Source of the DNA: a virus
Lineage: Duplodnaviria > Heunggongvirae > Uroviricota > Caudoviricetes
Direction: 5' to 3' (one strand)
DNA length: 13,400 bases
Virus record (IMG/VR): IMGVR_UViG_2565956633_000006
The notes beneath the pieces are model-generated. The model had not been told where the DNA came from. It saw only the letters and a program-made list of their open reading frames with translations, and searched no databases. Shown here piece by piece: positions 2,305 to 13,249 of the stretch; within the stretch, counting starts at the first letter, position 1; each line of letters opens with the position of its first letter. A program made the position numbers and the translations under genes.

Positions 2305-2620
2305 TATAATAAACTTACTTTTTTATCATTTTTCCACTTTAACAACATTTTGCTCCACTTTTCCACGACCAAACAACTTGAAATCTGGTTAAAATAACAC
2401 GCAACACTATTCTTCTTCCTTGAGTCCGCCCGGAACTCGAAAAACAAACCGAGTTAAAGCCATTTTTCACAAAATCGATTTTGGGTCTCACCAAAATTAC
2501 GGGGTTGCATACGCATTCGTTTATTTTCGAACGTGTACATACAAATATGCACAAAAATAATCAAAATTATTTTCTGAGATGCATTATGATATGAACACCA
2601 ATTTCGTATAGAGTCTCACT

Positions 2621-3211
2621 ATGTCTCGAATTTTTGCTTACTGTCGGATATCAACGCTGGATCAGACCACCGAAAATCAACGCCGGGAAATCGAAAGTGC
2701 AGGTTTTAAAATCAAACCTCAGCAAATAATCGAAGAACACATTAGCGGCTCAGCAGCAACCAGTGAGCGTCCTGGTTTTAACCGGTTGCTTGCTCGCCTG
2801 AAATGTGGTGATCAATTGATTGTGACAAAACTGGATCGCCTTGGTTGTAATGCAATGGATATCAGGAAAACAGTGGAACAACTGACCGAAACAGGTATCA
2901 GAGTGCATTGCTTAGCATTGGGGGGCATTGACCTGACCAGTCCAACAGGAAAAATGATGATGCAAGTAATTTCAGCAGTCGCTGAATTTGAACGAGACCT
3001 TTTACTTGAACGCACTCATTCCGGGATAGTAAGAGCCCGGGGCGCAGGGAAACGTTTTGGTCGACCACCTGTGTTAAATGAAGAACAGAAACAGGTGGTA
3101 TTCGAACGAATTAAGTCAGGTGTAAGTATAAGTGCCATTGCCCGGGAATTCAAAACCTCGCGGCAAACCATTTTAAGAGCCAAAGCAAAACTTCAGACAC
3201 CTGACATATAA
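2621..3211 (+). CDS. pinQ: Serine recombinase / DNA invertase (Gin/Hin/Pin family), 196 aa
   Basis: N-terminal [20 protein letters not shown] catalytic-serine motif and C-terminal helix-turn-helix ([23 protein letters not shown]), typical of Pin/Gin/Hin invertases. Confidence 0.95.
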
Positions 3212-3308: not shown

Positions 3309-3884
3309 CTACGGCAGTGCTGGCCATTCAATATCCTGTGCAGTTGACGTATCAACACGGTTCAGCAATACCCGATACTTTTTCCATGCTTCCAGCAACG
3401 AGATTTCTTCCTCCGTTGCAATTTCCAGATCTGCAGCATCCTGAAGCGGCGCAATATGCTCACTGGCTACCTGCATCAGGCTGTTTTTTGTTTCTTCCGC
3501 CTCCCGGATCCGGAACAGTTTTTCTGCTTCCGTATCCTTCACCCAGGCTGTGCCGTTCCACTTCTGATATTCCCCTCCCGGCGATAACCAGGTAACATTT
3601 TCCGGTAACGGACCGAGTTCAGAAATAAATAACGCGTCGCCAGAAGCCACGTCATAAACCGTTTTACCCCGATGATCTTCAACGAGATGCCACGATGCCT
3701 CATCACTGTTGAAAACAGCCACGAAGCCTGCCGGAATATCTGGCGGTGCAATATCGATACTGTTTGCTGGCAGACCTGTATGAGGCGGAATATATGCGTC
3801 ACCTTCACCAATAAATTCATTAGTTCCGGCCAGCAGATTATAAATTTTTATGGTCCGTGGTTGTTCACTCATTCTGAATGCCAT
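3309..3884 (-). CDS. tfaQ: Tail fibre assembly protein (lambda Tfa-like), 191 aa
   Basis: Tfa-family product; start ATG overlaps the stf stop as TAATG at 3882-3886, indicating translational coupling. Confidence 0.9.
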
Positions 3885-4801
3885 TATGCAAGCCTCACAA
3901 TATAGTTAAATGCGATGTTTTTGACGGTGTTTTCCGCGTTACCAGCAGCGTTAACGGTGATGGTATGTCCATGTGAACCAATCGCAACGGAGTGCGTATG
4001 AGCACCAATACCGACAGTATGTGCGTGTGCACCTGCGCTTGCAGCAGTACCCGATACAGAGTGCGTATGAGCGCCTGCAGAAGAAGTGTTAACACTGTAT
4101 TTAGAATAATCAGGTGATCCACTTCCCGGAGCACCACTGGAACCACCTGAAACAAATGTCATCGAATGGGTATGTGCACCGGCTGAAGCAGCCGTACCGC
4201 TAACACTATGGGTATGCGCACCAGTGTTATTCGTGGATTTAGTGCCGTAATCAAACGACGATGTGGTTTTCGTCCCCAAATCCGTACTGGATACGCTGGC
4301 GCTGTGGGTGTGTGATTTAATGCCGTCCTGTTCCTGAGACAATACGGCTCGATCACTGGCGGGCTTGCCCTTAATCGTCCAGCCACGCATATCAGGGATC
4401 ACGCCTGACGGATAAGCGGCTGCAAGTTTCGGGTAAGCAGATTTGTCAAAAGTCTGCCCCTGCATCAGGGCATAACCAGACGGAACGGTATCTGATGGCC
4501 ACGGGATTGGTGCACCGACTGGATAAAACTCTGCAGGAGGATGAGCCGAGGTGTAAAGCTGCGCCCACGGCGACCAGTTTGCGTCGGTCGTATCCCGTCG
4601 TGAACGAATAAATGCCGGAGCATGAGCACCGCTTGTACCACTCCAGCCGATGAGTAACTCACCTTCGCCAACGGCTGTCATCCCTTTCAGGTGAATGATA
4701 TTTCCATACGCTGTTGGATATCCGTTGTTATACACCTCGTATAACTCAAGACCTGTTGCCCCCTGCGTATTGTCTGTCAGCGCGGTTACCCGCGTATCGT
4801 T
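3884..4801 (-). pseudogene. stfQ: Side tail fibre protein, C-terminal fragment (lambda Stf-like)
   Basis: Open frame from the stop at 4802-4804 down to the stop at 3884-3886, with no ATG near the 5' end (first start-like codon is GTG at 4733-4735, without an SD). Product carries repeated GAHTHS...[10 protein letters not shown] His-rich motifs and ends ...[11 protein letters not shown] as in lambda Stf. Confidence 0.85.
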
Positions 4802-4851
4802 TCATCGGCGCGGGCAATGGCAGCATCGAACAGGTTATCGGAATCAGCCAC
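4786..4851 (-). pseudogene. Remnant of lambda FII-like head-tail joining gene (first 21 codons only)
   Basis: GGGAGG followed by GTG GCT GAT TCC GAT AAC CTG TTC GAT GCT GCC ATT GCC CGC GCC GAT GAA ACG ATA CGC GGG TAA, i.e. [21 protein letters not shown], matching the lambda FII N-terminus ([21 protein letters not shown]) as I recall it. Start is GTG here, and the frame stops where the stf-derived sequence begins. Confidence 0.6.
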
Positions 4852-4862
4852 AGCGCCTCCCG

Positions 4863-5258
4863 TTATTGCATTCTGGCCAGGCCATGTTCTGTCATTTCGG
4901 CTGCCACACCGGCAGAGACACGAAACGCCGTTCCCGGCAGCACAAATGCCACAGGCTCATCCCGCGTGGCGTGAAGTGCATCAGTATGCAGCGTCACCAG
5001 TGCCACGACCGTGACCAGAGCAGCCGTATCAATCACGGTATCCGGCTGCGCTGATACCACCTCATTTTCATGTCCGGTCAGCGCATTTTCCGGGCTGACA
5101 GATGTGTCCTGACCGGCAGCGTCATCCGTGTCATCAAGCTCCTCTTCCAGCTCTGCCACACGGAGCACCAGTTCTTCTTTCGTCCCCGTCAGGCTGACAT
5201 CACGGTTCAGTTGCTCACCCAGCACCTGAAGACGGGCAATCAGTTCATCTTTCGTCAT
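4863..5258 (-). CDS. Lambda FI-like DNA packaging protein, 131 aa
   Basis: Product from the internal ATG at 5256-5258 (MTKDELIARLQVLGEQLNRDVSLTGTKEEL...) matches lambda gpFI; strong SD (GGAGGAG) upstream. The longer ORF-track start at 5297 lacks an SD. Confidence 0.85.
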   Translation of the reverse strand: MTKDELIARLQVLGEQLNRDVSLTGTKEELVLRVAELEEELDDTDDAAGQDTSVSPENALTGHENEVVSAQPDTVIDTAALVTVVALVTLHTDALHATRDEPVAFVLPGTAFRVSAGVAAEMTEHGLARMQ

Positions 5259-5279
5259 GGACTCCTCCACAGAGAGAAA

Positions 5280-5297
5280 ATGGCCCCGAAGGGCCAT
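5280..5297 (-). terminator. GC-rich hairpin between the E remnant and FI (ATGGCCC-TTCG-GGGCCAT on the minus strand, then TTTCTCTCT)
   Basis: Perfect 7-bp stem with a 4-nt loop, followed by a U-rich tract on the coding (minus) strand; could act as attenuator or mRNA stabiliser. Confidence 0.35.
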
Positions 5298-5299
5298 GA

Positions 5300-5866
5300 T
5301 TACGCCAGTTGTACGGACACGAACGCATCAGGATCAGCCAGCAGCATCAGCGGTGCTGACTGAATCATGGTGAACTCACGCGCCGGATCGCCGGTGGTCA
5401 CCCAGTTTTTCGGGTAGCGGGCAGAGGCGTTAATACCTTCGCGCTGTGCGTCCGCATCCTGAATGCAGCCATAGGTGCGCAGACCGCGTGCCTGAGTGTT
5501 CCCCAGCACCATCGTGTTGTCCGGCAGGAAGTTCTTTTTGACGTCGTTTTCCACGTACTGTCCGGAATACACGACGATCGCCGTATCGCCATACATCCCC
5601 TTATAGGACACCGCTTCGCCCAGGTCTTTTACCGCTGTCTCCAGCTCGGAATTAGAGCCGCGACGGGTATCCAGCTTCTCCTTGACGGCTTTGAAGGAAC
5701 GGAACAGCGCCCAGCCTTTCGGATCAAACACGATGATATTCACCACGCCGCTGGCGTTCAGCGCGTAGGCTTCGATATCGTCGGTCGGGTCATACGTGGA
5801 CTTGTCACGCTTGCTCCACTCCGTGCCGCCGGACTGCGTGATGTTGTTCGCCGCACTGCGGCCCAT
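5300..5866 (-). pseudogene. Major capsid protein (lambda gpE-like), C-terminal remnant of about 188 codons
   Basis: Product ends ...NTMVLGNTQARGLRTYGCIQDADAQREGINASARYPKNWVTTGDPAREFTMIQSAPLMLLADPDAFVSVQLA, matching the C-terminus of lambda E; the 5' half is absent and replaced by the Nu1-like gene. Confidence 0.85.
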
Positions 5867-8253: not shown

Positions 8254-8460
8254 CTTCATTTTCACTTTTTTAAATCCAACGACAGACGGCTGGCATTTAA
8301 GTATTGTGAAATATTATCAAATGTAATCATCATTGATTTACAAAAGATACATTTTGCCCCGAAAGGATTCATGTCAGAAACATCAAAAGATGATGTTCTA
8401 TACTGGGAACCATGACAACACGGGCATCTAAAGTGAATATGGTTTGTAATATTGTCTACC

Positions 8461-8673
8461 TCAAAGCGCCACTACATGAACAGCGGCAGGACCTTTAGGT
8501 CCGTTCTCAATACCAAATTCAACTTCCTGATTCTCAGTTAATGTTTTGAAATCGTTGCTCTGAATTGCTGAGAAATGGACAAACACATCTTTGCTGCCAT
8601 CTTTCGGCGTGATGAAACCAAAACCTTTTTCAGGGTTAAACCATTTCACTAAACCAGTCATTTTGTTAGACAT
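8461..8673 (-). CDS. cspI: Cold-shock protein CspI (CspA family), 70 aa
   Basis: [38 protein letters not shown]... with RNP1 (KGFGFI) and RNP2 (VFVHF) motifs; long leader region upstream. Confidence 0.95.
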
Positions 8674-9037
8674 AATTATTACCTTTTGAAGAAATTAGCC
8701 CTTGGGCAGAATGGTCCGAAAAAAAAATATCAGAGAGAAAAACCAACAAGGAAATCTCAAGAGGTACAAATAATAAAATTATAACAATGACTGCTTCAGA
8801 TAAATTTGTAACAAACCAGAACACCATTAACGCATGATTAACCACCCATAGCAAGGATTACTTTTGTAAAGAAAAACACAGCAATGAAAGAATAGCTTTA
8901 TTTATTAATAATAACGTGTCATTCTGATTAAGACCTTTTATCTTACCCTTAAGATTTCAGGAATTTTGGCTCATGGAAGAGTCCTTTTTATTTAAATTTT
9001 ACATTCCGCGATGTAAATGTTCCGATTTAATATTACC

Positions 9038-10061
<1,024 letters not shown>

Positions 10062-10065
<4 letters not shown>

Positions 10066-10373
10066 ATATATTTATGATGAGGACGCTCGTGCTTATTGGC
10101 AGGATTTTCAATCTTAAAGGAGTACTGATGCTGCAGATAAGACTCAACTTTTTCTGACAATTTTTCTGCTACTTCCAGGAAGACTTGCCGGACGCTCCTT
10201 CTGGCTGCTGCCTCATAAAACTCCAGCGCAGCTCCTTCAACACGGTCCATGGCGACATCCAGGTCAAAAATTTCACCGTCAAAGCGTTCTTTGTCCTGTA
10301 AGGCTACAGTTACCGTAACTTTATTCTCAAAATTACGGACTCCTTTCACAACCAGTTCATAGTCTTGAGTCAT
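10062..10373 (-). CDS. ydfR: Uncharacterised protein inserted between holin and endolysin (DUF1327 family), 103 aa
   Basis: Intact ORF, 4 nt after the holin stop and overlapping the endolysin start (ATGA); acidic, predicted soluble. Confidence 0.8.
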
Positions 10374-10377
10374 TGGA

Positions 10378-10593
10378 TTACTCTCCTCTCGCAGCCTTAC
10401 GCCTGTCTTCTTTAATCTTGAAATAAAGATTTGTCAGATACGTCAGCAGGCCAAAAACCAGGCTACCCAGCACACCGATTGCAGCCCACTGTGACGGAGT
10501 TACTTTATCGAGTAACTGCAATGCCCAGAAACCAGCATTACCCGCCGATGTGCCATAGGCAACACCTGTTGTTAACTTATCCATTGATTTCAT
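10378..10593 (-). CDS. essQ: Class II holin / pinholin (phage 21 S-like), 71 aa with dual-start motif
   Basis: [71 protein letters not shown] resembles S21; Met1-Lys-Ser-Met4 dual start; GAGG SD upstream of the ATG at 10591-10593. The longer track ORF (to 10668) is upstream read-through. Confidence 0.9.
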
Positions 10594-10812
10594 ATCCTCA
10601 CCCCGATGTACACGGATGGTGCAATATGTTTGAAAAGATCGGAGTCTACGGGGTAGTTTTGACAGCACACGTTGTTCTCAACGGCGCTAAAAAAACATAC
10701 ACATTAAAAATGTGGGTAATTATTTTGAAAGAAAGTCATATATAAAATAATAATACGAGAAATGTTTTCATATTTAGTGTACTGTATACGGCCATTTATA
10801 CAGGAAAAGCCT

Positions 10813-10983
10813 ATGTCAGAACGTAAAAACTCAAAATCACGCCGTAATTATCTCGTTAAATGTTCCTGCCCAAACTGCACCCAAGAGTCAGAACACAGTT
10901 TTTCAAGAGTACAAAAAGGTGCCCTTTTGATCTGCCCTCATTGCAACAAAGTATTCCAGACAAATCTTAAAGCTGTAGCCTGA
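10813..10983 (+). CDS. ynfU: Small zinc-ribbon protein, 56 aa (MSERKNSKSRRNYLVKCSCPNCTQESEHSFSRVQKGALLICPHCNKVFQTNLKAVA); possibly ynfU
   Basis: ATG at 10813 with AGGA 7 nt upstream; two Cys pairs (C-x-C-P-x-C and C-P-x2-C) form a putative zinc ribbon; basic N-terminus. Symbol assigned from memory of a Qin small zinc-binding protein, not verified. Confidence 0.5.
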   Translation: MSERKNSKSRRNYLVKCSCPNCTQESEHSFSRVQKGALLICPHCNKVFQTNLKAVA

Positions 10984-11040: not shown

Positions 11041-11065
11041 ATAAAAAACCCGCCTGAGCGGGTTT
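11041..11065 (-). terminator. Rho-independent terminator (AACCCGC-TCAG-GCGGGTT followed by TTTTTTAT on the minus strand); weakly bidirectional
   Basis: 7-bp GC-rich stem with tetraloop and a U-tract on the minus-strand transcript; downstream of cspB and convergent with the zinc-ribbon ORF. Confidence 0.6.
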
Positions 11066-11346
11066 GAGATTGTGGTGCTTTTTGTGGGAGTCATCCACTT
11101 ACGCACTTTGTTTTGCCATGCCAGCAGTTAGCTTCTGCTGTAAAACTATTCATGCAGCAAACCTGCACTTCACCACAATGGTTAGCATACTTTTCCTGAT
11201 TAAGATTTTGCCAAATATGCTAGCCATTGTTTCATGTATTGGACCTCCTTACTTTTTATTAAAGAGATCCAATATTCACTACTCTGTCCGTATCTCTACT
11301 CAGGCATCAGCCTTCTTCGTTATCGTATACAGACGAGCGATGAATT

Positions 11347-11562
11347 TTAATCAGTAATGATGACATTTGCTGCTGCAGGACCTTTAGCACCACTCTCTAT
11401 AGAGAAGGTAACCTTTTGACCTTCAAATAAGGTTCGATAATTATCATTCTGAATCGCAGAAAAATGCACAAACACATCTTTACTACCATCAACAGGAGAA
11501 ATAAAGCCGAAACCTTTATCAGCGTTAAACCATTTTACTAAACCAGTCATTTTATTTGACAT
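11347..11562 (-). CDS. cspB: Cold-shock protein CspB (CspA family), 71 aa
   Basis: [38 protein letters not shown]...; AAGGA SD 7 nt upstream of the ATG at 11560-11562. Confidence 0.95.
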
Positions 11563-11862
11563 TCTACATTCCTTAACTTGAGCCTTTCGGCATAAATGGT
11601 TTGCATAACAGAAACGACTTCGTACTTAATTGGAGAGACTCAAAGAAGGAATAAGTGAATAACACCTGAAATGAGAACTGCTTTAGTAAACTACTTCGTA
11701 TATCGTCTGTTCTTCAAACCGACGCAATCATTAACGCATAGTTGAACATATGAAGCAATGTTTATTTTAGACATCCAGCCATCTTCAACCCCATCAAAAA
11801 ACTATAGCTTTCTTCAGGAACGTGTGTATAGTGCGCCAAGTTATCAGTATTAAGGAATTTTT
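11563..11862. promoter_or_regulatory. Divergent cspB/cspF control region (promoters and long 5' leaders)
   Basis: 300-bp AT-rich spacer between divergently oriented csp genes; contains a repeated ACTTCGTA motif (11615-11626 and 11691-11705) in the expected cspB leader. CspA-family genes are known to carry long regulatory 5' UTRs. Confidence 0.5.
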
Positions 11863-12075
11863 TTGTCCCGTAAAATGACAGGAATTGTCAAAACCTTTGA
11901 CGGCAAAAGCGGCAAGGGTCTTATCACCCCATCCGATGGTCGTATCGATGTCCAGCTTCATGTCTCAGCGCTCAATCTCCGCGATGCAGAAGAAATTACC
12001 ACCGGATTACGCGTGGAATTTTGCCGGATAAATGGTCTGCGTGGCCCTTCAGCTGCCAATGTTTACCTTTCATGA
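11863..12075 (+). CDS. cspF: CspA-family paralog CspF, 70 aa, with degenerate nucleic-acid-binding motifs; probable TTG start
   Basis: [38 protein letters not shown]...; start codon at 11863 is TTG with AAGGA 6 nt upstream; RNP1/RNP2 aromatic residues are replaced (KGKGLI, VQLHV). Confidence 0.9.
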
Positions 12076-12496: not shown

Positions 12497-13249
12497 TTAT
12501 CTCGTCACCTTCCTCAATTGCGCTTCCGCGTATGCTTCTTCCTGCCAGCACTTTGTTACCAGTTTACCAATGACGTCCGCATACCCCTTATACCACTGAT
12601 AATCGGTCAGGTCTGGTACCAGCTTCTGGACATGACGTCGTGCCAGCGTGGTCGGTAAACGACTAAACCGGTTTCCATTACAACGCCCACAAATCTTATA
12701 TACCGGTACGCCATGAAACCGGGTTCTTTTTTCATCCAGAACAATCCCTTTACCCTTACACCCTCTGCACGCTGTGCTGGCTTCGCCCTTACCATGGCAA
12801 TGCTGACATAGTTCCTTCACCCATTCTTCCTTGATTACAGATTCCCCGCGTCTGTAGTGTTTCACCACTTCGCGCAATACATTATAAAATCCCGTACCTG
12901 AACAATGCTCACAGCGAGCCTTACTTGCCGCAGACCTGGAGTAATCAGCAAAGGCAAAACTCACGAGGTAAGGAATAATCTGTAACCGGATTTCTTCACT
13001 CAATTTGTTCAATGTCGGGTTATCCAGTGCCATCGCGTAATTTAGCAGGCCTTCAATCGCAAACTGAGGGTCCTGAACACCAACTTTTGCCAGAAATAAG
13101 GCCAACCCAAGTGGTGCTTTCGACTGCACCATCCCCTGCGCTGCCATTACATCCGTAATTGTTAAACAACCGGTGCCTGTCGCTGGAGCGTCATCGCTCA
13201 ATTTTGGAGATTTTGGGGAGTAATATTTTGGTAAGGCTTCAAGGTTCAT
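12497..13249 (-). CDS. quuQ: Late-gene antiterminator Q-like protein, 250 aa
   Basis: Cys-rich zinc-binding region (CEHCSGTG...CQHCHGKG...CRGCKGKG...CGRCNG) typical of phage Q antiterminators; ATG at 13247-13249 has GGAG 7 nt upstream. The track start at 13279 is TTG with no SD. Confidence 0.9.
   Translation of the reverse strand: MNLEALPKYYSPKSPKLSDDAPATGTGCLTITDVMAAQGMVQSKAPLGLALFLAKVGVQDPQFAIEGLLNYAMALDNPTLNKLSEEIRLQIIPYLVSFAFADYSRSAASKARCEHCSGTGFYNVLREVVKHYRRGESVIKEEWVKELCQHCHGKGEASTACRGCKGKGIVLDEKRTRFHGVPVYKICGRCNGNRFSRLPTTLARRHVQKLVPDLTDYQWYKGYADVIGKLVTKCWQEEAYAEAQLRKVTR

Follow-up and report, generated by a model that had tools for sequence, protein, structure and literature searches.

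The ydfR gene of prophage Qin lies in a variable slot between phage-21-type holin and lysozyme genes and may be late-expressed accessory cargo acting on RNase E or RNA

The DNA analyzed here is a 13,400-nucleotide (nt) stretch of tailed phage origin (the window; IMG/VR record IMGVR_UViG_2565956633_000006), which corresponds to the cryptic lambdoid prophage Qin in a K-12-like form, with 99.7% identity to Escherichia coli MG1655 over 7.1 kilobases (kb) including the late region. On the minus strand of the window, between the gene for a phage-21-type holin (essQ) and the gene for a lysozyme predicted to be a signal-arrest-release (SAR) endolysin (rrrQ), lies ydfR (10062-10373), an open reading frame (ORF) for a 103-amino acid protein of the DUF1327 family. 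From this placement, a preliminary description of the sequence derived a role of YdfR in the timing or inhibition of lysis. The comparisons reported here favor, tentatively and with somewhat less than even confidence, another explanation, namely that ydfR is an optional, late-expressed piece of accessory cargo, most likely acting on RNase E or RNA, and not a dedicated part of the lysis machinery. Cargo is suggested because the gene is optional for the holin-lysozyme pair, the slot that it occupies is hypervariable and its domain travels to other junctions in late operons. The anatomy of the locus, the optionality of the gene, the variability of the slot, the mobility and predicted fold of the domain and the purifying selection come from the present analysis, and the connection to RNase E and RNA comes from the literature. 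Three rival explanations are all ranked below accessory cargo that acts on RNase E.

The survey of the holin-lysozyme junction covered 160 IMG/VR loci whose holins are of the phage 21 type and are close to that of Qin (80 loci) or of BP-4795 (80 loci). The loci were classed by tblastn; seven of them end before the lysozyme gene and are absent from the classification. The combination of ydfR with an RrrQ-type lysozyme occurs in 97 loci. In another 43, a lysozyme of the R21/RrrD type overlaps the holin stop codon and there is no ydfR, which is the layout of phage 21 and prophage DLP12, so that the preliminary description was right in stating that phage 21 cassettes have nothing between holin and endolysin and that, relative to phage 21 and lambda, the 103-amino acid ORF is an extra gene. 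These cassettes (S21, R21/RrrD, Rz/Rz1) have the same gene order and the same PF04971 holin family, with at least 94% identity in DLP12-type loci, and differ from Qin in the overlap and in the lysozyme, which is only ~33% identical to RrrQ. Eleven loci encode an RrrQ-type lysozyme and lack the DUF1327 domain, one has ydfR with no lysozyme detected, and in one the lysozyme is unmatched despite room after the holin. Where ydfR is present, its start codon is 4 nt from the holin stop codon in 99 of 102 loci and 3-4 nt from it in 100 of 102, and throughout the 160 loci the gene was seen only with RrrQ-type lysozymes, never with the R21 type.

The lysozyme, for its part, is far more often found without ydfR. 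In phage records, RrrQ-type lysozymes (at least 80% identity) occur in ~355 and ydfR in 100, and most of the phages that encode Shiga toxin (Stx) 2a lack ydfR, so that a strict co-occurrence of ydfR with this lysozyme was rejected as a decisive functional tie. The gene is missing from cassettes with the same holin and endolysin types, among them VT2-Sakai, locus L170 and most Stx2a phages. The Stx2a phage VT2-Sakai has the same holin family, a lysozyme 89% identical to RrrQ and the same 4-nt spacer, with the difference that the lysozyme gene takes the position of ydfR, joined directly to the holin gene, and uses the Shine-Dalgarno sequence embedded in the latter; there is no DUF1327 gene. Phage 933W presumably has the same type of cassette. 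In L170, the RrrQ-type lysozyme gene likewise starts 4 nt after the holin.

The slot itself is highly variable. Among the 97 loci with ydfR, holin stop and lysozyme start are separated by 311-1654 nt, with 20 different distances, and in most phages the lysozyme gene is 50-1300 nt downstream of ydfR and is not coupled to it. Ten loci without the DUF1327 domain (L103, L113, L130, L132, L147, L152, L160, L162, L165 and L172) carry in the slot an ORF for 158-213 amino acids that begins 4 nt past the holin gene and whose product corresponds to the C-terminal modules of long YdfR forms, such as the tail of Stx2-86 gp05: a coiled coil followed by an EWECNRPSF...GLTYLKGRI module. Judged from these alignments, domains are shuffled within the holin-lysozyme slot. 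Neither Pfam nor PADLOC gave a match for these DUF1327-less proteins. The preliminary description had held that unrelated insertions at the same site in related cassettes would speak against a role in lysis; this was found in part, as ten cassettes carry a DUF1327-less gene and unrelated reverse-strand ORFs are present in the slot of phages Evi, Stx2-86 and PhiR12_2. Even a single holin type is combined with different contents of the slot: the type-B holin is paired with type-A YdfR in 18 loci, with type-B YdfR in 32 and with neither in 29, the two YdfR types being 47% identical. Frameshifted and truncated copies of ydfR are common in databases.

Two of the surveyed loci show further detail. 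In the classic Stx1 phage H-19B (AF034975; L089, 1606 to ~1950), the unannotated 400-base pair (bp) gap between S and R opens with a type-B ydfR ORF (MKKKYELVVK...), which starts 4 nt after the S stop codon. In the Qin-type locus L008 (~4030-5480), the lysozyme is matched only from residue 46, ~1.4 kb downstream of ydfR, which suggests that the lysozyme gene was disrupted by an insertion.

The DUF1327/YdfR family is a very small one. Among 5.8 billion sequences, searches found 267-282 clusters at 90% identity, and wherever the source name includes an organism, this is Escherichia or Shigella; a profile search of 1.84 billion representatives produced 89 matches. Profile searching also recovered proteins of 72-76 amino acids that are 25-35% identical to YdfR in a gapless alignment. 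All four of these homologues that were looked up are encoded within lambda-like clusters of tail genes, away from any lysis gene, three (P0256, P0264 and P0272) between the gpM and gpL genes and one (P0278) after a gpI-like gene. The gpM/gpL junction is occupied in four loci (L091-L094). P0264 and E. coli YdfR are reciprocal matches over 72 of 72 residues (E=4e-7), and the gpL that adjoins P0264 is 75% identical to gpL of phi80. P0256 has no relative in cultured-phage records, and profile scans of genome contigs for divergent tail-cluster homologues gave no match.

The lysis and tail locations are connected by phage Evi (L004), in which positions 2494-3156 are collinear with positions 442-1105 of L092 over ~660 bp. 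The Evi unit consists of a 72-amino acid ydfR followed by a convergent ORF of 98 amino acids (phrog_25324) that is 61% identical to the ORF beside P0264. The collinearity implies that the same two-gene unit resides in the lysis cassette of Evi and between M and L in the tail cluster of the phi80-like contig L092.

A broader generalization, which we consider rather unlikely, is that the DUF1327 domain, often together with a convergent small ORF, is a mobile cassette that inserts precisely at junctions of lambdoid late operons (holin/lysozyme, gpM/gpL and after gpI) and delivers a late factor acting on RNase E or RNA. Under this generalization, the holin-lysozyme junction would be a so far undescribed hypervariable accessory locus with shuffled domains, in which the insert takes over the ribosome-binding site of the lysozyme gene. 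The resemblance to phage morons, such as bor and lom of lambda and the HK97-type insertions, is that ydfR is present or absent between contiguous genes at more than one late-operon junction and is dispensable for the flanking module. Unlike morons, ydfR lacks its own promoter and terminator, has an ordinary guanine-cytosine (GC) content and depends on late transcription and a borrowed ribosome-binding site; the convergent partner ORF of some phages appears closer to a classical moron than ydfR is.

YdfR matches PF07041 (DUF1327) over all 93 profile positions (1-93) with 179.9 bits, compared with a cut-off of 25 (E=1.1e-53), in agreement with the family assignment of the preliminary description. 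The characterization of the protein as acidic and soluble also holds, the acidity being mild: the isoelectric point (pI) of the whole protein is 5.56 and that of residues 1-72 is 4.6, and the grand average of hydropathy is -0.61. The maximum 19-residue Kyte-Doolittle value of 0.67 indicates no transmembrane segment, hydropathy gives no sign of membrane or periplasmic targeting (transmembrane or SAR segment, signal peptide or lipobox), and YdfR is listed as cytoplasmic in the literature (PMC13232886).

The conserved unit of the family comprises residues 1-72, beyond which the tails vary in length and content, so that ORFs in the slot range from 72 to 296 amino acids. Seventeen diverse members align without gaps over the 72 residues, down to ~25% identity, and retain the hydrophobic pattern; Y53-E54 is invariant in this alignment, and in 15 of the 17 sequences the residue before it is Phe or Tyr. 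The AlphaFold2 model of the domain, built from a diverse alignment, has a predicted local distance difference test (pLDDT) score of 88.5 and a predicted template modeling score of 0.73, with three strands (residues 5-14, 18-27 and 34-43) followed by a helix that begins at residue 50. In the full-length model of YdfR, this helix runs on to about residue 83, and residues 84-103, with pLDDT below 50, are predicted to be disordered. There is no convincingly related structure or sequence in the Protein Data Bank (PDB) and no characterized family: a profile search of PDB sequences with YdfR gave no match and BFVD none that was significant. Similarly, the PADLOC defense models matched neither YdfR nor the long forms nor the reverse ORFs, and Pfam had nothing for the C-terminal modules or the reverse ORFs except a sub-threshold match to DUF1823. 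For the domain, synonymous divergence (dS) was computable in 12 pairs. The ratio of nonsynonymous to synonymous substitution rates (dN/dS) lies between 0.17 and 0.44 in 11 of them and is 1.14, from few substitutions, in the close type-B pair L005-L007; for comparison, the values are 0.02-0.23 for the holin and 0.04-0.12 for the lysozyme. Because dN/dS is below 1, the DUF1327 domain encodes a real protein, one that evolves faster than its neighbors.

The only paper that bears on the function of YdfR (Göpel et al., RNA Biol 2026; PMC13232886) points to RNA metabolism. With RNase G as two-hybrid bait, ydfR codons 1-72 were recovered three times, and the two-hybrid signals of this fragment were stronger with RNase E constructs than with RNase G. 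Strep-tagged YdfR co-purified Rne1-598, and the eluate contained DNase-resistant nucleic acid (PMC13232886). The published RNase-interacting fragment coincides exactly with the conserved domain delineated here, and the K-12 protein is identical to that of the window over residues 1-102. An activity on RNase E or RNA, to which this one study and weak fold hints point, is most likely the one carried by the accessory gene.

Phage-encoded modulators of RNase E include T4 Srd, T7 gp0.7 and phiKZ Dip. As a small phage protein reported to target the N-terminal catalytic half of RNase E (PMC13232886), YdfR resembles T4 Srd in particular. It differs from the known modulators in that it shows no detected similarity to solved proteins, would act late and not early, and is linked to RNase E by association, in the literature.

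Several points weigh against accessory cargo that acts on RNase E. The link to this enzyme comes from one study, in which the lysate received no nuclease treatment, so that RNA may form the bridge between the two; with full-length YdfR, Rne1-597 alone scored; and the two-hybrid screen gave 43 preys, which makes its specificity uncertain (PMC13232886). Overexpression of YdfR changed few transcripts and caused no growth defect, and ydfR is almost silent in K-12 under the conditions used (PMC13232886). The Keio ydfR mutant is among the hits of a chlorophenol red-beta-D-galactopyranoside (CPRG) screen for envelope leakiness or lysis (Paradis-Bleau et al. 2014; PMC3879167, supplementary files 2 and 5), a result that could equally point to a lysis-restraining role. 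Finally, the ydfR genes of the E. coli lineage always lie exactly 4 nt after this holin and never accompany an R21-type lysozyme, which could be the sign of a functional tie to lysis and not of linkage.

One such tie would be that YdfR is a cytoplasmic lysis regulator, which would bind the basic C-terminal tail of the pinholin, as an antiholin in the manner of T4 RIII, or would restrain the SAR lysozyme, and so would delay or sharpen triggering; we regard this as improbable. T4 RIII is a small soluble phage protein and a cytoplasmic antiholin, and we know of no other precedent for the kind of lysis inhibitor that the preliminary description proposed. It has no sequence relationship to YdfR. 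The regulator would account for the near-constant spacing of 3-4 nt from the holin family in E. coli phages, for co-translation with the lysis genes, for the exclusive pairing with RrrQ-type lysozymes and for the contrast between an acidic N-terminal domain and a basic holin tail. It is hard to reconcile with phages such as VT2-Sakai and with L170, in which a direct junction links holin and lysozyme genes of these types, with the family members in tail clusters, or with the holin type that tolerates two divergent YdfR types, a DUF1327-less slot protein or no YdfR at all. In addition, YdfR evolves at several times the rate of the holin or the lysozyme, has no membrane segment, is tied through residues 1-72 to RNase E and RNA, and had no reported effect on growth when overexpressed (PMC13232886). 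The leakiness of the Keio mutant, the remaining point in favor of a regulator, has another plausible origin in a polar effect: the Keio design puts a kanamycin resistance (kan) cassette in the place of ydfR, immediately before the SAR lysozyme gene, and read-through from the kan promoter into rrrQ would explain the CPRG phenotype. With this possible confounding factor, the CPRG result was set aside as evidence of lysis inhibition. Placement is a weak guide to function for ydfR, and the lysis role that was derived from it finds no support in these comparisons.

Cargo could also have another target, such as host defense, superinfection exclusion or some other aspect of host takeover, with the association with RNase E and RNA being incidental to overexpression. 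This is unlikely in our estimate, though less so than a lysis regulator. The hypervariable slot, the domain shuffling, the fast divergence, the narrow host range (Escherichia and Shigella), the frequent convergent small ORF, the dN/dS of ~1.1 in one close type-B pair and the small number of transcripts affected by overexpression all fit such cargo. What counts against it is that no PADLOC model, characterized family or solved structure was matched, that there is no positive evidence for a specific alternative target and that the association with RNase E was seen by two methods.

The features of the window that frame ydfR, all on the minus strand, are the following, in the order of transcription.

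12497-13249, minus strand: quuQ/ydfT, Q-type late antiterminator that heads the late operon (RefSeq annotation).
11046-11065, minus strand: hairpin resembling an intrinsic terminator, downstream of cspB and upstream of the cassette.
10378-10593, minus strand: essQ, phage-21-type (class II) holin of 71 amino acids with an MKSM dual start, predicted pinholin (PF04971, phrog_20/9876).
10383-10387, minus strand: AGGAG Shine-Dalgarno sequence within the final codons of essQ, 9 nt before the ydfR start codon (from the sequence).
10062-10373, minus strand: ydfR, 103 amino acids, ATG start (PF07041, DUF1327).
10158-10373, minus strand: ydfR codons 1-72, conserved DUF1327 domain (alignments, AlphaFold2).
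10065-10157, minus strand: ydfR codons 73-103, lineage-specific tail (low pLDDT; tails vary between phages).
10062-10065, minus strand: ATGA overlap of the ydfR stop codon TGA (10062-10064) and the rrrQ start codon ATG (10063-10065) (from the sequence).
9532-10065, minus strand: rrrQ, T4-type lysozyme of 177 amino acids with a Gly/Ala/Ser-rich N-terminal segment, predicted SAR endolysin (PF00959).
9038-9535, minus strand: rzpQ, Rz-like i-spanin whose start overlaps the rrrQ stop (PF10721, DUF2514, E=8e-39; phrog_312, 'Rz-like spanin').
9088-9342, minus strand: rzoQ, o-spanin lipoprotein, in another frame within rzpQ (phrog_11621, E=2e-8; mapped K-12 annotation b4689).

The order on the minus strand is, then, quuQ/ydfT, cspB, the hairpin, essQ, ydfR, rrrQ and rzpQ with rzoQ embedded. 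Read-through of the hairpin by the late operon would require Q. No internal promoter-like or terminator-like site was found within 9000-10600, the GC content of ydfR carries no mark of foreign origin, and an Rfam scan detected no RNA family in the lysis cassette. RefSeq annotates 10062-10373 as ydfR, under the name 'YdfR family protein' from the Prokaryotic Genome Annotation Pipeline, and the gene is the same as K-12 ydfR of Qin (b1555, UniProt P76160), with the same neighbors essQ, rrrQ and rzpQ/rzoQ. The two proteins are identical in 102 of 103 residues; the sole difference, I for L at residue 103, reflects a AAATATAT versus AAATATCT variant at the ATGA junction. A 1.7-kb stretch around ydfR is 100% identical in many E. 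coli chromosomes. Because the deposited complete genome of phage Tritos encodes an identical YdfR in an identical arrangement, this layout is not confined to a cryptic prophage.

The flanking genes are readily assigned. EssQ matches PF04971 ('Bacteriophage P21 holin S') with E=4e-34 and bears the RefSeq name essD/essQ; its hydropathy window peaks at only 1.58, over residues 37-55, and does not resolve a second transmembrane segment, so that the two-segment topology is predicted by homology to the phage 21 S family. The lysozyme matches PF00959 (E=1e-23) and aligns, from residue 9 onward, with RrrD (4zpu) and with the endolysin of phage 21 (3hde). The alignment takes in the Gly/Ala/Ser-rich N-terminal segment, which is 69% Gly, Ala, Ser or Thr; the lysozyme motif aligns with EGVSYIPYKDIVGVWT. 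Such lysozymes of Stx phages have been predicted to be SAR endolysins (Pinto et al.; PMC8136144). A possible cleavable signal peptide site, AGA|S, in the rrrQ product would be an alternative to a SAR segment.

The junctions on both sides of ydfR are tight, exactly as the preliminary description had it. The holin gene ends in ...AGAGGAGAG TAA, its 3' end reading ...AGA GGA GAG TAA, and is followed by the 4-nt spacer TCCA and the ydfR ATG; at the other end, ydfR closes with ...AAA TAT ATA TGA, and the lysozyme ATG is at 10065-10063. The translational linkage of ydfR with the lysis genes, also part of that description, is borne out by the holin-embedded Shine-Dalgarno sequence, the ATGA overlap and the lack of a Shine-Dalgarno sequence of the lysozyme gene. 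The gene that comes next, ydfR in Qin and the lysozyme gene in VT2-Sakai, is served by AGGAG or GGGGAGAG in the final holin codons, and in every locus with an occupied slot there is no Shine-Dalgarno sequence in the 20 nt upstream of the lysozyme start. Left without such a sequence, the lysozyme gene of the window would be translated by termination-reinitiation, for which the ATGA overlap at 10062-10065 is probably the site.

The origin of the overlap can be traced in the leader of the lysozyme gene. The leader ...ATAAA[T/C]CCTGATAAATATCC-ATG is present in 60 loci with ydfR and in six DUF1327-less slot loci, and the Qin-type leader ...CCTCATCATAAATAT[A/C]T-ATG in 30 loci. The latter is without its stop codons, so that ydfR reads through to ATGA; the last codons of ydfR derive from the conserved leader without a Shine-Dalgarno sequence that precedes the lysozyme gene in other phages. 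This A/T-rich leader (...CCAGGGATTTGAAATCGATAAATCCTGATAAATATCC-ATG), seen in occupied-slot loci at 10066-10085 of the window and in the 60 nt before the lysozyme gene in L002-L007 and L089, is able to form a CAGGG/CCCTG stem.

These translation signals are where a further alternative arises, namely that the protein is irrelevant and the ORF is either a translational spacer or coupler that sets the dose of lysozyme or decaying filler in a recombination hot spot. The lysozyme gene without a Shine-Dalgarno sequence whenever the slot is occupied, the ATGA overlap of the Qin type, the abundance of frameshifted and truncated copies and the near silence of the gene in the cryptic prophage are all compatible with this explanation. 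We nevertheless hold it to be very unlikely, given that dN/dS is clearly below 1 across deep divergence, that a gapless 72-residue alignment with invariant Y53-E54 persists to ~25% identity, that the fold is predicted with confidence, that homologues are kept in a quite different context and that, in most phages, the lysozyme gene is 50-1300 nt downstream and uncoupled.

Under the preferred explanation, accessory cargo that acts on RNase E or RNA, ydfR fills a hypervariable slot between the phage-21-type pinholin and RrrQ-type SAR lysozyme genes of lambdoid coliphages, and would be transcribed with the late operon and translated from the strong Shine-Dalgarno sequence in the 3' end of the holin gene. 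The product is predicted to be a small soluble cytoplasmic protein whose only conserved part is the 72-amino acid domain of three strands and one helix. This domain would associate with the catalytic N-terminal half of RNase E (and with RNase G), directly or via bound RNA, and late in infection YdfR may modulate the processing or decay of transcripts. In the compact layout of Qin and Tritos, the ydfR ORF would have taken over the ribosome-binding site that the lysozyme gene uses where it directly follows the holin gene, and the output of lysozyme would depend on the translation of ydfR. We infer both the effect on RNA decay and the translational coupling.

Outside the cassette, cold-shock paralogues bracket the lysis genes on the minus strand: cspI (8434-8820) and cspB (11331-11723), both with Rfam cspA thermoregulator leaders; cspF is on the plus strand (11863-12075). 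The published cold induction of the ydfR cluster may be a reflection of the neighboring csp genes. In the 630-bp gap between cspB and the holin gene, divergent from essQ, there is the zinc-ribbon ORF ynfU (10813-10983, plus strand; PF23499, E=6e-31), with a promoter-like site nearby at 10725-10754. Apart from the cspA thermoregulators, the Rfam scan yielded only a match to IS009 (221 bits; 3343-3541, minus strand) inside the tfaQ region of the prophage.

Neither ydfR nor its family nor its place in Qin is new, all of them being annotated already. Reviews of the lysis cassettes of Stx phages deal with the pinholin and the SAR endolysin and leave the gene between them undiscussed. The hypervariable holin-lysozyme slot, the tail-cluster homologues, the mobile two-gene unit and the capture of the ribosome-binding site appear to be absent from the searchable literature, and are a modest and descriptive addition to it. 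They depict the junction of the pinholin and SAR endolysin genes as a hot spot for the exchange of small modular proteins among coliphages, those with Stx1 and Stx2c included. If the link to RNase E is true, a late-expressed modulator of host RNA decay would be encoded beside the toxin and lysis genes. Capture of the ribosome-binding site predicts that the dosage of lysozyme differs between Stx phages with and without ydfR, which could bear on lysis and toxin release.

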